From a virus (taxonomy: Duplodnaviria > Heunggongvirae > Uroviricota > Caudoviricetes): a stretch of 5,217 nucleotides of DNA. The stretch lies in the IMG/VR virus record IMGVR_UViG_2645727673_000004, one strand, 5' to 3'. The translations under genes were made by a program, and so were the position numbers. The notes under the pieces were generated by a model. That model made no database searches. It was not told where the DNA came from and saw only the letters and a list, made by a program, of their open reading frames with translations. Shown here piece by piece: positions 1 through 5,115 of this stretch (the stretch's first letter is position 1; the number at the start of each line of letters is the position of its first letter).

Positions 1-642
1 CGCCGTCAGTCGCCCGTCCGGTGTAAGGGAAAATGCAGGAGGATTACCGCCGCTGGTAATGGTGGGAGCCGTCAGATATTTCAGGAACACGTCGTTCATG
101 AATATCTGATCACCCTGACCAACAAACATCGGCTTTGTGTTGCCATTCGCAGGATTAATCATCGCAATCCTGTCTGCCGCCAGCAGCACCTGACTCTGCA
201 TTCCTGCTGGCGTATTCTCAATACCGGCACCGATACCCGCAATATAAAGGCGTCCGTCCTGCATCTGCTGCAGTTTCACGGCCCACATGCTGTTCAGGTT
301 ATTATTTGTATCAACCTGAACCTTCTGTATCTGCTGGATCGCTGCACTCTGGTCTTCCAGTTTCTTATTGACGGTCTGTGTGATTTCATTGCTGACATCC
401 GTAATGGATGTCCTGATTTCAGCCAGGTCAGGCGCAAGCTGACCGTTATCAATCTGCGTCCACAGCTCCTGAGCCAGATGGGTTTTCCCTATCTCGCCTT
501 TGAAAAAATCCAGATAGCCGGATGCGTCATCACTCGGCTGACCAACAGCCTCCACGAATGCCGATTTGCCAACGGTGTTCACACTGCGAACGTAAAAATA
601 ATAATTATGGCCCGGTTTGATATTGATACTGGCGGCTAACAT
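1..642 (-). CDS. Lambda J-like tail-tip / host-specificity protein, distal fragment; 5'-truncated and running off the window at its 3' side
   Basis: Minus-strand frame is open from the window edge to ATG at 640-642 (214 codons). Translation is [34 protein letters not shown]...[98 protein letters not shown], which I recognise as the conserved distal part of lambdoid J-family proteins (Fn3-like YYFYVRSVN strand). An in-frame TAA sits two codons upstream (646-648) and there is no SD before the ATG, so the ATG is probably fortuitous. Absent from the ORF track because its stop is outside the window. Confidence 0.6.
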
Positions 643-963: not shown

Positions 964-1257
964 ATGAAAAAAATGTTGTTTTCTGCCGCTCTGGCAATGC
1001 TTATTACAGGATGTGCTCAACAGACGTTTACTGTTGGAAACAAACCGACAGCAGTAACACCAAAGGAAACCATCACCCATCATTTCTTCGTTTCGGGAAT
1101 TGGACAGGAGAAAACTGTTGATGCAGCCAAAATTTGTGGCGGCGCAGAAAATGTTGTTAAAACAGAAACCCAGCAAACATTCGTAAATGGATTTCTCGGT
1201 TTTATTACTTTAGGCATTTATACTCCACTGGAAGCGCGTGTGTATTGCTCACAATAA
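964..1257 (+). CDS. bor: Bor outer-membrane lipoprotein (lambda bor family, serum-resistance lysogenic-conversion protein)
   Basis: Translation MKKMLFSAALAMLITGCAQQTFTVGNKPTAVTPKETITHHFFVSGIGQEKTVDAAKICGGAENVVKTETQQTFVNGFLGFITLGIYTPLEARVYCSQ (97 aa) matches lambda Bor nearly residue for residue as I recall it. Lipobox is LITGC. It is convergent with Rz, as in lambda. The ORF-track start at 916 adds 16 non-homologous residues; ATG 964 chosen. Confidence 0.9.
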   Translation: MKKMLFSAALAMLITGCAQQTFTVGNKPTAVTPKETITHHFFVSGIGQEKTVDAAKICGGAENVVKTETQQTFVNGFLGFITLGIYTPLEARVYCSQ

Positions 1258-1288: not shown

Positions 1289-1750
1289 CTATCTGCACTG
1301 CTCATTAATATACTTCTGGGTTCCTTCCAGTTGTTTTTGCATTGTGATCAGCCTCTCTCTGAGGGTGAAATAATCCCGTTCAGCGGTGTCTGCCAGTCGG
1401 GGGCTGGTTGCATTATCCACGCCGGAGGCGGTGGTGGCTTCACGCACTGACTGACAGACTGCTTTGATGTGCAACCGACGACGACCAGCGGCAACATCAG
1501 CGCGCAGAGTTTCATTTTCAGCTTTCGCATTGGCTAATTCTCTCGAGTACTTTGCATCGAGTGCAGCAACATCACGCTGACGCTGCTGCATGTCAGCGAT
1601 AGTGGCGATCGCCTGCTTCAGCTCACTGACTTTTTTATCACGCTGTTCTTTGTAGGCGATGGCGTTATCACGGTAATGATTGACCGCCCACGACAGGCAG
1701 ACGATGATGCAGATAACCAAAGCATAAATAATCGCGGCGACTCTGCTCAC
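1289..1750 (-). CDS. Rz: Rz i-spanin (inner-membrane spanin subunit)
   Basis: Translation [39 protein letters not shown]...[62 protein letters not shown] is near-identical to lambda Rz. I place the start at GTG 1748-1750, which overlaps the R stop (GTGA) and has GGGGGA 7 nt upstream; this gives 153 aa as in lambda. The ORF-track start at 1765 is a TTG with no SD. Confidence 0.85.
1348..1530 (-). CDS. Rz1: Rz1 o-spanin (outer-membrane lipoprotein), fully embedded in Rz in the +1 frame
   Basis: 60-aa [63 protein letters not shown] has lipobox LVVVGC and a proline-rich stretch, and is near-identical to lambda Rz1. It lies entirely inside Rz. Confidence 0.85.
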
Positions 1751-2280
1751 TGCTCTATCCCCCAACAGGCTAATGCGCTTTCCTGGTCACGACGAATAAC
1801 CTGTCCATAGCAGTTATTTGAACGTATGCGGCAATCGCGCCCACCATCTTTTATCCACCAGCGAATCGCCTCGCATGCGCCCTTACGATCACCGGCATTC
1901 AGCCGCTTATAAAACGTCGACGGGAAACACTTACCGGGGCCAATGTTATAGGGACAGAATGACGCTATACCCGCTTTTTGTGGTTCGGTCAGTAGTACTT
2001 TAATATTGCGCTCCACCCATGCCAGCGCCTTATCACGCTCAATGGCGTTGACCTGGTCGCATTTTTCCTTCGACAGTTTCATACCGGGAAAAACGGGTTT
2101 TCCATCCACCATCGTGGCACCCCGACAGATGGTCCAGATGCCGGACCCATCGCGGTATGCCGTTGTGTGGTTACCTTCTTTTTCATCCAGAAACTGGTCG
2201 AGAATATCAGGCGCGGGCGCACCGACGGCAATCAGTGCCAGAACGGCAGCCGACAGGCCGTATCTGATTTTTGCGTTCAT
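1747..2280 (-). CDS. R: Endolysin, glycoside hydrolase family 24 (T4-lysozyme-like) with N-terminal SAR/signal-anchor segment
   Basis: 177-aa ORF with ATG start. N-terminal weakly hydrophobic Gly/Ala-rich segment [18 protein letters not shown] is followed by the catalytic E-x8-D-x5-T pattern ([16 protein letters not shown]). It matches the endolysins of Stx/lambdoid phages that I recall, and its stop overlaps the Rz start. Confidence 0.9.
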
Positions 2281-2343
2281 GGATATTTATCAGGATTTAT
2301 CGGTTTCTGCCCACGGACAGGTTTATCTGTTCCGGTCAGTGAC

Positions 2344-2694
2344 TTAAGGTTGTGATTCCGGAGGAGTCTTCAGAGAACCAGTAATTCTTCCCGGTAGCTT
2401 TCCTTTGTAGGTTATCCATACATTCTGCGCCTCTAAAATTACGGGGCGCTTTTCCGGCGACTGCTCATCCCCTTCACATAACCCGGCAGCAACATCCAGG
2501 AAGACCTGTCTGATACTCATTCTGGCTGCTGCCTCATAAAACTCCAGCGCGGCACCTTCAACACGGTCCAGCGAGATGTCCAGGTCAAAAATTTCACCGT
2601 CAAAGCGTTTTTTGTCCCGTAACGCTAAAGTTACCGTAACTTTATTCTCAAAATTGCGGATCCCTTTCACAATCAGTTCATAGTTTTGAGTCAT
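2344..2694 (-). CDS. DUF1327-family protein (YdfR-like) located between holin and endolysin
   Basis: 116-aa ORF MTQNYELIVKGIRNFENKVTVTLALRDKKRFDGEIFDLDISLDRVEGAALEFYEAAARMSIRQVFLDVAAG... resembles E. coli Qin-prophage YdfR, which lies between essQ and rrrQ (from memory). ATG at 2694 has GGGGAGAG upstream and sits 4 nt after the holin stop. Confidence 0.7.
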   Translation of the reverse strand: MTQNYELIVKGIRNFENKVTVTLALRDKKRFDGEIFDLDISLDRVEGAALEFYEAAARMSIRQVFLDVAAGLCEGDEQSPEKRPVILEAQNVWITYKGKLPGRITGSLKTPPESQP

Positions 2695-2698
2695 TGAA

Positions 2699-2914
2699 TT
2701 ACTCTCCCCGTGCCGCCTTACGACGGTCCTCTCTGATTTTGAAATACAGGTTAGTCAGATATGTCAGCAGCCCAAACAGCAGACTCCCCAGCACGCCTAT
2801 TGCCGCCCACTGAGACGGGGAAACCCTGTCCAGCAACTGCAGGAACCAGTAGCCCGTTCCCACCGCTGACGTGGTGTATGACACACCTGTTGTGATTTTT
2901 TCCATCTGGTCCAT
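2699..2914 (-). CDS. S: Class II holin / pinholin of the phage 21 S family, with dual-start motif (antiholin from Met1, holin from Met4)
   Basis: Translation [71 protein letters not shown] (71 aa) closely matches S21 as I recall it. Two in-frame ATGs at 2912-2914 and 2903-2905 give the classic dual start, with GGGAGA upstream. The ORF-track N-terminal extension to 3019 begins at GTG and contains a terminator, so it is rejected. Confidence 0.85.
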
Positions 2915-2946
2915 ACCCCGTCTCCCGTTATCCGGAAGCTGACAAC

Positions 2947-2978
2947 AATAAAAAAGCCACCAGTTAACTACTGATGGC
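2947..2978 (-). terminator. Rho-independent terminator on the late strand, immediately upstream of the holin
   Basis: Minus-strand RNA GCCAUCAG-UAGUUAA-CUGGUGGC forms an 8-bp stem with one G-U pair, followed by UUUUUUAUUG. Confidence 0.5.
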
Positions 2979-3221
2979 TCTGATAACTCATGCAAGCGTC
3001 TCAGACGATCCACTGACACTACCGGTGAGTTTAACGATACCTTCCATTTGACTGGCTCACTTTTTATGATGATGCCGGTGTATTTATCTCCAGCACCAGA
3101 CTTTCTATCTCAACGCCATACGTTGCATTTTTGGTAATATCCGTCAGCGTCAGTGCATTTAGTCCCACTGCCAGACCGTCTTTTATGGTCTGGAATGCCG
3201 GGCCAGTACGATGACGTAGTA

Positions 3222-3410
3222 TCACTCCGGCTCAGTTGCACCACTGACCACCACATCACCTTCTGCTGCAATCGCCTGCATCAGGGTATAAGGGGTTATG
3301 GCCACCGGACTACCAAACGGCTGCCAGCCCTCTTTCAGTTTATGTGTCAGCTTTTCCGCAAGATCTGACGGCGGCGCCGCCCTGACAACATCATAGTGTT
3401 TAAATGCCAT
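3222..3410 (-). CDS. Small DUF1737-like protein (62 aa)
   Basis: ORF MAFKHYDVVRAAPPSDLAEKLTHKLKEGWQPFGSPVAITPYTLMQAIAAEGDVVVSGATEPE carries the EGWQP-G motif that I associate with DUF1737 small proteins. ATG 3408-3410 is preceded by GGTGGAAAG; an alternative ATG at 3425 (MVERT...) has no SD. Confidence 0.55.
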   Translation of the reverse strand: MAFKHYDVVRAAPPSDLAEKLTHKLKEGWQPFGSPVAITPYTLMQAIAAEGDVVVSGATEPE

Positions 3411-3670
3411 GGTTCTTTCCACCATCTGAAAAATAATTCTTTAAAATACCAGACATGTAACACAGAAAAAACACAAAACCATACCTTAAATAGAAACCTG
3501 ATCATCAAGCAGATATGCATGGATAAACTACAAGACGAGATATAAACCACCCTGCATTTAAATAAACAATAAACAACATCAGAAAAATAATTCTGCTCTA
3601 TGGTTTATATTCAAAAATATCATTTATACTTTTCAGAACATCACCAGCAAGGCATAAACAAGGAAGCTAA

Positions 3671-4006
3671 ATGAAGTGGATTGTAATTGATACAGTTATC
3701 CAGCCATCATGCGGAATATCTTTTTCAGTCATATGGAGTAAAGTAAAATTAATAATCTGGTATCAATCGGATGCTTTCTTACCTCCTGAAAGTATATTTA
3801 CACTGACTCACACAGGTATCATGCTCAATAACAAAGTGCTACCTGTAACCATTTACAACGTAGTACCATTCAATAAAACATTCTGGAATTTAATCAAAAA
3901 CAGCCAGGAATGCCCTACAAATACAGATAACGTATTGAATGAATGCTTTAATAACCGTTGCATTCTGCAAATATGTCCTTATGGACTAAAACAACAAAGT
4001 CCATAA
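3671..4006 (+). CDS. Hypothetical protein, AT-rich orphan ORF (111 aa) opposite to the late operon
   Basis: ATG at 3671 is preceded by AAGGAAG (3660-3666). A 111-codon open frame in strongly AT-rich sequence is unlikely by chance because stop codons are AT-rich. Protein is [111 protein letters not shown]; no family recognised. Confidence 0.45.
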
Positions 4007-4027: not shown

Positions 4028-4062
4028 AAATCAATATAAACAGCCCCTCCGGAGAGGGGCTG
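4028..4062 (-). terminator. Rho-independent terminator on the late strand (3' end of repeat unit R1)
   Basis: Perfect 9-bp GC-rich stem CAGCCCCUC-(4-nt loop)-GAGGGGCUG at 4041-4062, followed on the minus strand by UUUAUAUUGAUUUUGUC. There is no U-tract on the plus side. Confidence 0.6.
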
Positions 4063-4276
4063 GAGAGTGGCGCTATGTGCCATTGCATGGTGCCGGGTGC
4101 CTCCCGGTGAATTCAGTACCAGCACCTGAATCCGCGATTATCCCATATACCTACTCGCTGATTACCCCTCCGCACAGGGGGATTCACCATGCGAAATTTT
4201 TTAACAAACTTCCCGCCGGCCAGACAATAATCGCCAGCCTGAATTATGAGCAACGTGGCATTTTACGGGAAAACTG
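4041..4276. repeat. Repeat unit R1 of a diverged ~240-bp direct repeat (paralog of 4505-4746)
   Basis: Aligns with 4505-4746 along its whole length with several indels, roughly three-quarters identical by eye. Shared blocks include the 20-mer AGCCCCTCCGGAGAGGGGCT, GCATGGTGCC-GG-GCCTCCCGGT-AATTCAG, GGGGGATTCACCATGCG and TTTTTAACAAA...CCAGACAAT. Confidence 0.75.
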
Positions 4277-4283
4277 TTTTCTG

Positions 4284-4310
4284 CAGTAAAAAGGCCCGCC
4301 GGAGCGAGCC
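4284..4310 (-). terminator. Imperfect GC-hairpin terminator on the late strand, upstream boundary of R1
   Basis: GGCCCGC-CGGA-GCGAGCC at 4293-4310 has a 7-bp stem with one mismatch and the same CGGA loop as the repeat hairpins, followed on the minus strand by UUUUUAC. Confidence 0.4.
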
Positions 4311-4496
4311 TGGAAGGATAGCGGTCATGTGATGCCGGTTTCCCGGTAACTCAGCATCGGTATCTGAGTCAACGTTTTCTCTACTGGGTCATTTCCGATA
4401 CGTTCCGCCTTCCGGCAGACTTTCATCACGTCAGAAAATATAGCACCCTGAGTAACAGGACAGTACTCAGAATTCAGGAAACTGTGACACATCCTG

Positions 4497-4524
4497 CACA
4501 GAAAAGCCCCTCCGGAGAGGGGCT
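4497..4524 (-). terminator. Rho-independent terminator on the late strand (3' end of repeat unit R2)
   Basis: Perfect 8-bp stem AGCCCCUC-(4-nt loop)-GAGGGGCU at 4505-4524, followed on the minus strand by UUUUCUGUGC. Confidence 0.55.
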
Positions 4525-4746
4525 GAAGTATAGCCTAATTTCTGTCTGTCGCATGGTGCCAGGGGCCTCCCGGTAAATTCAGCCTGTCTACTGAATTTGC
4601 ATGTTCTCTGGATCATACACTTTGCCAGATGCCCCGCCGCTGAGGGGGATTCACCATGCGATGTAATTTTTAACAAATTCTCCGGCAGCCAGACAATCAT
4701 CAAGCTGTGGAATTGTGAGGTATTTAAAAATTTCAACGGGTAACTG
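4505..4746. repeat. Repeat unit R2 (paralog of 4041-4276)
   Basis: See R1. Same block order and orientation, and the same palindromic 20-mer at its left end. Confidence 0.75.
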
Positions 4747-5039: not shown

Positions 5040-5115
5040 TGGTGGCCCTTGCTGGATTTGAACCAGCGACCTGGCGATTATGAGTCGCTCGCTCTCACCA
5101 CTGAGCTAAAGGGCC
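5040..5115 (-). tRNA. tRNA with CAU anticodon, most similar to tRNA-Ile2 (ileX/ileZ-like, lysidine type); may be annotated tRNA-Met
   Basis: Minus strand GGCCCTTTAGCTCAGTGGTGAGAGCGAGCGACTCATAATCGCCAGGTCGCTGGTTCAAATCCAGCAAGGGCCACCA is 76 nt and folds as a canonical cloverleaf: 7-bp acceptor stem, GCTC/GAGC D-stem, anticodon loop CUCAUAA, T-arm GCTGG-TTCAAAT-CCAGC, encoded CCA. It differs at only a handful of positions from E. coli ileX as I recall it. Confidence 0.9.

Follow-up and report, generated by a model that had tools for sequence, protein, structure and literature searches.

A DUF1327 (YdfR-family) gene between the pinholin and endolysin genes of a lambdoid Escherichia coli prophage, and an endolysin start without a Shine-Dalgarno sequence

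The 5,217-nt stretch analyzed here (the window), taken from IMG/VR virus record IMGVR_UViG_2645727673_000004 (Caudoviricetes), is the late region of a lambdoid Escherichia coli prophage in which all lysis genes lie on the minus strand. Between the gene for a pinholin (S) and that for a signal-anchor-release (SAR) endolysin (R) sits an open reading frame (ORF), at positions 2344-2694, that comparison with its relatives identifies as a real gene of the YdfR/DUF1327 family under purifying selection. The explanation that we consider best overall combines three parts: ydfR is a mobile accessory gene of the late operon, R is translated from a start site that works independently of a Shine-Dalgarno (SD) sequence, and YdfR acts on RNase E or RNA. 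We give this combination about an even chance of being right.

The ydfR gene and its lysis cassette

The first-pass annotation of the window had picked out a DUF1327-like gene wedged into the lysis cassette, with its start 4 nt from the holin stop and behind a strong SD. These statements hold: the ORF is a PF07041 member between holin and endolysin, and the junction is arranged as described. The lysis region comprises the following features.

2699-2914, minus strand: class II (S21-type) pinholin with dual start M1/M4 (ATG at 2914 and 2905), PF04971
2702-2709, minus strand: SD GGGGAGAG of ydfR, within the last holin codons
2344-2694, minus strand: interposed ORF (ydfR), 116 aa, PF07041 (DUF1327)
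2473-2694, minus strand: ydfR codons 1-74, conserved DUF1327 core (AlphaFold2 model; 80% identical to K-12 YdfR 1-74)
2344-2472, minus strand: ydfR codons 75-116 and stop, lineage-specific C-terminal extension, predicted to be disordered (predicted local distance difference test, pLDDT, <50)
2307-2343, minus strand: variant-specific part of the ydfR-R gap, which in pairwise alignment with the related locus L024 corresponds to sequence on the right-hand side of the partner-ORF block
2281-2306, minus strand: AU-rich initiation block AAACCGATAAATCCTGATAAATATCC without an SD, adjoining the endolysin ATG, with a tandem GATAAAT repeat and an in-frame TGA TAA
1747-2280, minus strand: SAR-type endolysin of the T4-lysozyme family, rrrQ type, PF00959 (E = 1.5e-23)
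1289-1750, minus strand: Rz i-spanin, PF03245 (E = 1e-49), annotated in an identical phage record
1348-1530, minus strand: Rz1 o-spanin embedded in Rz, PF06085 (E = 3e-20)

The holin stop (TAA, 2701-2699) and the ydfR ATG (2694-2692) are separated by the spacer TTCA (2698-2695), and GGGGAGAG is predicted to form an anti-SD duplex of -8.5 kcal/mol. The endolysin gene begins 421 nt from the last holin sense codon and 418 nt from the holin stop, and its own stop overlaps the GTG start codon of Rz (GTGA), which has an anti-SD duplex of -8.4 kcal/mol.

Apart from ydfR, the cassette follows the pinholin-SAR endolysin paradigm of P21 (S21-R21-Rz/Rz1) and DLP12 (essD-rrrD-rzpD). The holin belongs to the same dual-start class II family (PF04971, E = 9e-33, 112.5 bits; phrog_9876/20, holin; N-terminus MDQMEKI as read from the sequence), the endolysin was judged to be of the SAR type by inspection (a Gly/Ala-rich N-terminal segment and the triad E35-x8-D44-x5-T50, that is, the E-8-D-5-T spacing of these lysozymes), Rz1 is embedded in Rz, and an SD lies within the last holin codons. 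The departure concerns what that SD serves. In the P21 arrangement the endolysin abuts the holin, and in DLP12 the last holin codons, GAGAGGTGAATAATG, supply it with both the SD and a stop/start overlap (TAATG), whereas at the corresponding junction of the window, GGGGAGAGTAATTCAATG, the SD has been taken over by ydfR, which is translated from it. The window's endolysin is of a different lysozyme lineage from that of DLP12 and follows an SD-less, AU-rich leader. A side observation concerns the holin itself: with the dual start M-D-Q-M (2905-2914) the longer product gains an acidic residue, whereas the S21 start (M-K-S-M) gains a basic one, so the usual antiholin charge logic may not apply here.

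Neither the gene nor its family nor its placement is new: all three are annotated in K-12, in Shiga toxin (Stx) phages and in phage records of identical sequence. Over the segment 1700-3000 the window matches phages vB_EcoS-640R1, -733R4, -716R1 and -813R8 at 100% identity; their records label the ORF "putative YdfR family protein," and annotated entries from phages and from E. coli are 100% identical to ydfR as well. Most Stx phages share the order S-ydfR-R. A 581-nt query made of ydfR and the adjoining holin and endolysin ends found matches in 4390 of 5426 complete E. coli genomes, and a 1301-nt cassette query (1700-3000) matched 366 phage records, mostly of Stx1a-, Stx2a- or Stx2c-converting phages. 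Eighty IMG/VR loci carry a closely related, rrrQ-type endolysin; 75 of these have enough upstream sequence to judge gene order, and the order is holin-ydfR-endolysin in 74.

The Qin prophage of K-12 (essQ-ydfR-rrrQ-rzpQ; YdfR is b1555) resembles the window in the Pfam family, in the placement between a class II holin and an rrrQ-type lysozyme, in the 4-nt spacing between holin stop and ydfR, and in an SD-less endolysin start that keeps ATAAATATC before the ATG. It differs in that K-12 YdfR has 103 aa, with an unrelated C-terminal tail and a stop overlapping the rrrQ start (ATGA), whereas the window protein has 116 aa and ends 63 nt upstream of R.

The window protein scores 142.4 bits against PF07041 (cut-off 25; E = 5.3e-42; residues 1-112) and carries the family signature, a core of ~72 aa with Y5-E-L7, R44-x-E-G and L50-E-F-Y-E54 ... 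A57, in which Y53 and E54 are invariant in our alignments even in relatives from Pantoea, Yersinia and Sodalis. It is a soluble acidic protein (13 kDa, isoelectric point [pI] 5.2, grand average of hydropathy -0.34), with no membrane segment or signal-like N-terminus in its sequence (maximum Kyte-Doolittle score over 19 residues, 1.03). Two AlphaFold models agree on the core fold, with antiparallel strands at residues 5-14, 18-27 and 34-43 followed by a long helix at 50-73; with a deeper alignment the AlphaFold2 pLDDT is 73-91 over residues 1-70. Beyond the core the protein varies freely. K-12 YdfR ends in an unrelated tail of 29 aa, other E. coli variants reach 176, 183, 268 or 287 aa, and PHROGs divides DUF1327 into five groups (all labelled "unknown function") because the C-terminal parts differ, the differences lying only beyond about residue 77-113.

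Against diverged copies, the ratio of nonsynonymous to synonymous divergence (dN/dS) is 0.19-0.41, in pairs with dS of up to 0.84, which shows purifying selection. The gene is mosaic as well: compared with the O157 copy (locus L004), the N-domain has a dS of 1.7 and the C-terminal part one of 0.26. The family as a whole is small, with 319 clusters at 90% identity (of 5.8 billion) and 88 representatives at 50% (of 1.84 billion). Fold searches returned nothing above noise, neither a solved structure nor an informative fold neighbor.

Relatives, convergent neighbors and the possible action of YdfR

Conservation of the gene order in related prophages, which the first-pass annotation had proposed to check, is close to complete among the IMG/VR loci described above and breaks down among distant relatives. 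A profile search found stand-alone, N-domain-only proteins of 72-76 aa in Pantoea, Yersinia and Sodalis, and in other genera the N-domain is kept as an intact ORF of this length down to about 25-35% identity. Two proteins of 170-176 aa contain tandem DUF1327-like domains (L091, 5001-5531, and P0191). Many of these relatives occur within lambda-like tail gene clusters: L087, L094 and L096 have the gene between M and L, L098 and L099 have it between L and K, and L086 carries it after I. In L089 and L091 it stands directly ahead of a holin instead. Their presence among tail genes implies that the family is not tied to lysis. Judged by these positions, DUF1327 is a family of mobile, moron-like accessory genes of the late operon, which in E. 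coli occupies the slot between S and R.

The likeness to the known late-operon morons of lambdoid phages (bor, lom, HK97 gp15, stx) lies in presence or absence between conserved late genes, in varying slots, and in a shift of base composition (the G+C content of ydfR is 0.467, against 0.542 and 0.528 in its neighbors). A convergent gene that can neighbor ydfR also resembles bor in its orientation. Unlike morons, ydfR points the same way as the late operon and is coupled to the holin at the level of translation; it is therefore probably expressed late and not in the lysogen.

Such convergent genes recur. Among 11 distant contexts, 9 have a small convergent ORF (70-182 aa) that begins 10-40 nt past the DUF1327 gene. 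About half of the E. coli loci carry one after ydfR, in some cases overlapping the ydfR 3' end, and all E. coli variants with a long gap hold an antisense ORF between ydfR and R (phrog_2411, 2572, 1853). Examples, in the coordinates of their own loci and antisense to ydfR and R, are as follows.

L024, 2123-2395: convergent ORF
L048, 2127-2387: convergent ORF
L041, 2083-2364: convergent ORF
L044, 2058-2372: convergent ORF
L043, 2010-2396: convergent ORF

This slot is hypervariable in E. coli, where the convergent ORFs have 86-128 aa, belong to at least three unrelated families and extend with their 3' ends up to 59 nt into that of ydfR. Taken together with the distant contexts, the partners form at least eight families without detectable mutual similarity. 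None of the convergent ORFs matched Pfam, and in PADLOC neither they nor YdfR matched a defence family. Two partners are homologous (hhalign E = 1e-30) despite sitting in different slots, one ahead of a holin (L091, 5560-5811) and the other between tail genes M and L (L096, 4247-4486), which suggests that the pair can move as a unit. The window aligns to the L024-type locus on both sides of a block of ~280 nt that holds the partner ORF. Its 63-nt gap therefore consists of an empty slot of 37 nt and an endolysin leader of 26 nt, and the window carries the partner-less form of such a locus, which may reflect either loss in the window or gain in L024. That DUF1327 genes recur beside a hypervariable convergent ORF, and do so at different sites of the late operon, may be new, in a modest way.

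It might be asked whether YdfR is one half of a two-gene mobile module, for example a late antidote or regulator of a convergent moron expressed in the lysogen, in which case the window copy would be an orphan. The convergent ORFs near or overlapping the 3' end, the homologous partners in different slots, and the match of the window to an L024-type locus minus its partner block would all fit this idea. A variable cargo slot, however, fits better with partners that fall into so many dissimilar families and match nothing in Pfam or PADLOC, and partner-less copies (the window type, K-12, Sodalis) are common and still under purifying selection. We regard the two-gene module as unlikely.

The only experimental clue to what the mobile accessory gene does comes from its K-12 orthologue. 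The first-pass statement that the function of this family is unknown still agrees with Pfam and PHROGs but no longer with the literature, since a 2026 paper reports binding of K-12 YdfR to RNase E and RNA. A two-hybrid screen baited with RNase G picked up residues 1-72 of K-12 YdfR three times (Gopel et al., RNA Biol 2026, PMC13232886). In two-hybrid assays this clone gave a signal when paired with RNase G, with RNase E 1-597 and with RNase E at full length, whereas the whole K-12 YdfR in a short-linker fusion did so with RNase E 1-597 only (PMC13232886). Strep-YdfR co-eluted RNase E 1-598, and the eluate contained DNase-resistant nucleic acid (PMC13232886). The window protein is 80% identical and 95% similar to K-12 YdfR over residues 1-74. 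Because its N-domain is this close to the fragment that bound RNase G and the catalytic, N-terminal half of RNase E, we propose, by analogy, that the most likely activity of window YdfR is that of a late-expressed cytoplasmic binder of RNase E or RNA; the proposal is tentative, and we would put its chances well short of even at best. YdfR would then act in the cytoplasm late in infection and would modulate mRNA decay, not the lysis machinery. If the K-12 data transfer, it would join the RNase E-targeting phage proteins (T7 gp0.7, T4 Srd, phiKZ Dip) as another small RNase E binder (PMC13232886).

Several points weigh against our overall explanation. Over-expression of K-12 ydfR altered few transcripts, and by the authors' own account the RNA may have been bound by a contaminant (PMC13232886). 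The RNase E binding comes from the K-12 orthologue only, by two-hybrid assay and by co-purification from over-producing cells (PMC13232886). With fold searches at noise level, the fold speaks neither for nor against binding of RNA or RNase E. A moron in the strict sense has its own promoter and terminator, and none was found for ydfR. The K-12 ATGA overlap permits translational coupling, which may contribute to endolysin synthesis in some variants. The prophage, finally, is defective, and the window's copy of ydfR may for this reason never be expressed. Separately, PMC13232886 cites an envelope-integrity phenotype of ydfR, but ydfR does not appear in the main text of the source, Paradis-Bleau 2014; if real, this phenotype could be a polar effect of the Keio insertion on the downstream SAR lysozyme gene rrrQ.

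The placement of ydfR also invites a direct role in lysis, and the first-pass annotation had suggested that the interposed protein may modulate it. YdfR would in that case be a cytoplasmic regulator that tunes pinholin triggering or release of the SAR endolysin, for example by binding the basic C-terminal tail of the pinholin. The near-invariant S-ydfR-R order, translation from a strong SD right after the holin, the two distant lineages with the gene immediately upstream of holins, and the pairing of an acidic protein with a basic holin tail are in keeping with this idea. Against it, YdfR has neither a membrane segment nor a signal sequence, its C-terminal half is freely swapped among variants, relatives lie far from lysis genes at tail positions M-L, L-K and after I, and over-expression of K-12 ydfR caused no growth defect (PMC13232886). 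YdfR also differs from antiholins and membrane regulators of the S107/S21-71, T4 RI and P1 LydB types in being a separate ORF without a localization signal and with relatives outside lysis cassettes. The P21 and DLP12 cassettes have the same holin family and work without ydfR; lysis by the P21 cassette proceeds in its absence. These findings weaken the suggestion of lysis modulation, and we consider it distinctly unlikely.

The RNase E lead and the convergent neighbors could also be joined in a single model, which we mention as a long shot. The DUF1327 core would be an adaptor that binds RNase E and RNA and travels with a hypervariable convergent gene, and YdfR made late would silence a partner expressed in the lysogen, by directing RNase E to the convergent transcript or by neutralizing its product once late transcription begins. 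If true, a prophage would shut down the lysogenic-conversion or exclusion cargo that it carries once it enters lytic growth. The pair would then represent a new kind of two-gene phage module, of which window YdfR would be an orphan that lost its partner.

The endolysin start

The ydfR stop (TAA, 2346-2344) is followed by a gap of 63 nt (2343-2281) and the endolysin ATG at 2280. We take 2280 as the start because an in-frame TGA TAA stands at -12 to -7 and there is no nearby in-frame alternative, the next in-frame ATG being at codon 57. The first-pass annotation had found no recognizable SD in this gap, and our comparison bears this out. The best anti-SD duplex (positions -20 to -4 against the 16S rRNA 3' end) has an energy of +0.6 kcal/mol, compared with -7.4 for the holin, -8.5 for ydfR, -8.4 for Rz and a median of -2.2 over all window positions. 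Among the 23 distinct junction variants represented in 85 related loci, none has an SD before the endolysin.

What is conserved at this place is an AU-rich block. Nearly all junction variants end in (A/G)AAnCCGATAAATCCTGATAAATATCC-ATG, and in the last 14 nt before the ATG, CCTGATAAATATCC, at most one base varies in all E. coli phage variants except L041 and K-12 Qin. In K-12 Qin, where the region is ydfR coding sequence, only ATAAATATC is retained. L041 has 11 nt inserted between the block and the ATG, with the end of the leader locally duplicated (…GATAAATATCCATCCATATCC-ATG), which shows that small insertions are tolerated here. The A+T content of the block is 75%, and the predicted mean probability of being unpaired over -15 to +12 is 0.77, against a window background of 0.42 +/- 0.10, making the endolysin start the most accessible by prediction among the start regions of the cassette. 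In sequence and predicted accessibility it thus has the properties of SD-independent initiation at unstructured, AU-rich leaders, sites of a kind that are served by ribosomal protein S1. The first-pass description of an unusual initiation is a fair one on this evidence. Initiation without an SD at such leaders also has published precedent (PMC3121790, PMC5397173).

Three other devices were considered, of which the first two were rejected. An AUG-presenting hairpin (CUGAU/AUCAG) has a z-score of -1.69, and several variants carry an uncompensated change (AUCAA) that disrupts its 3' arm. As to a conserved cryptic SD upstream of 2280, which the first-pass annotation had named as evidence that would count against it, the only candidate for pairing with the 16S 3' end is UGAU at -12 to -9, for which the duplex energy comes out positive. 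Transcription of a leaderless R mRNA from an internal promoter is a remote possibility, as the scan described next found no sigma-70-like site and the GATAAAT repeats make poor -10 elements by eye. A scan of the minus strand from 2281 to 2760 found no promoter or terminator consensus, a weak negative given how crude the scan was.

The spacing between ydfR stop and endolysin ATG is -4 (the K-12 ATGA overlap), 50, 55, 63, 321, 343, 359, 409 or 452 nt. The pre-ATG block is the same whether ydfR overlaps R by 4 nt or ends 452 nt upstream, and it is kept in L043, a locus without any ydfR. For this reason, we infer from sequence comparison and predicted accessibility that initiation at R is local, needs no SD and does not come about by re-initiation after ydfR. 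The SAR endolysin would be translated de novo from an AU-rich, unstructured leader of 14-26 nt.

Translation of the endolysin could instead depend on ribosomes arriving from ydfR, which after terminating at its stop would scan or re-initiate 63 nt further on (coupling, or 70S scanning), as the first-pass annotation had offered. Coupling would account for an R gene without an SD, for the K-12 ATGA overlap and for a gap in which no promoter or terminator was found. The comparison speaks against it, as the pre-ATG block is identical at gaps of 50-452 nt, also where an antisense ORF intervenes and in L043. The window, moreover, has no short upstream ORF ending at the endolysin ATGA, and 63 nt is generally considered long for efficient re-initiation. 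A stop at or near the next start, the mark of coupled pairs, is seen only in K-12 and not across the 63-nt gap of the window. We therefore hold dependence on coupling to be very unlikely.

Local, SD-independent initiation may also suit the product. SAR endolysins are exported by Sec and, when abundant, cause lysis without a holin, as in the P1 Lyz and R21 systems; by analogy, a weak start site would suit an enzyme that is lytic on its own if over-made. The conserved SD-less leader of rrrQ-type SAR endolysins may be new, again modestly.

That the ORF is instead a functionless, decaying or hitch-hiking remnant, retained only as sequence for R expression, is extremely unlikely: the prophage is defective, truncated or fused variants are many and the family is limited to few Enterobacterales (the 319 clusters and 88 representatives given above), but dN/dS shows constraint even in pairs with dS of up to 0.84, the N-domain persists as an intact ORF of 72-76 aa in other genera, and R needs only the 14-26 nt downstream of the ORF.

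Prophage setting and significance

Outside the lysis cassette, the window contains the following features.

5040-5115, minus strand: tRNA with anticodon CAT, called Met by ARAGORN
4032-4220, 4496-4689 and 4285-4460, minus strand: STnc100 small RNA family (Rfam), two strong copies (132-138 bits) and one weak
3671-4006, plus strand: IraM-like ORF, G+C 0.34, in opposite orientation; annotated as anti-adapter protein IraM in other records
3222-3425: DUF1737 ORF
2953-2981, minus strand: terminator-like hairpin, a 12-bp stem followed by a T-run, 39 nt 5' of the holin ATG
964-1257, plus strand: bor/iss
1-636, minus strand: startless open frame for an internal portion of a lambda-J-like tail tip protein, abutting bor/iss

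The J-like frame lacks a start and abuts bor/iss; the head genes and most of the tail genes have therefore been deleted, and the prophage is defective. In NZ_OZ547155, a 97.7%-identical chromosome, the J-like gene is likewise annotated as a pseudogene without an N-terminus that abuts iss. The terminator-like hairpin ahead of the holin is one that only Q-modified polymerase would read through. PGAP labels the homologue of the tRNA tRNA-Ile, in which case it would be a lysidine-modified phage tRNA of the ileX/ileZ type. The STnc100 copies stand in tandem, flanked by the tRNA and the IraM-like gene, and each is closed by a CCCCTCCGGAGAGGGGC hairpin; the weak copy, at 30 bits, is under the gathering score. 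The IraM-like ORF has no Pfam match, and in PHROGs it matches phrog_4407, a group of unknown function.

A specialist would find nothing surprising in the gene, its family or its position, all of which were annotated already. What the comparison adds is of practical use for work on endolysin translation: the 26-nt leader alone should suffice for such studies, and a deletion of ydfR would not be expected to bring a coupling artefact with it. The SD-less start of the SAR endolysin would be a natural example of SD-independent initiation, one that may keep a self-activating lysin low. Genes of the YdfR family are found in the lysis cassettes of most E. coli lambdoid prophages, and the same arrangement is present in Stx1- and Stx2-converting phages, where the lysis step releases Shiga toxin. 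Given this occurrence, even a modest effect of YdfR on late-mRNA stability or on lysis would be relevant.

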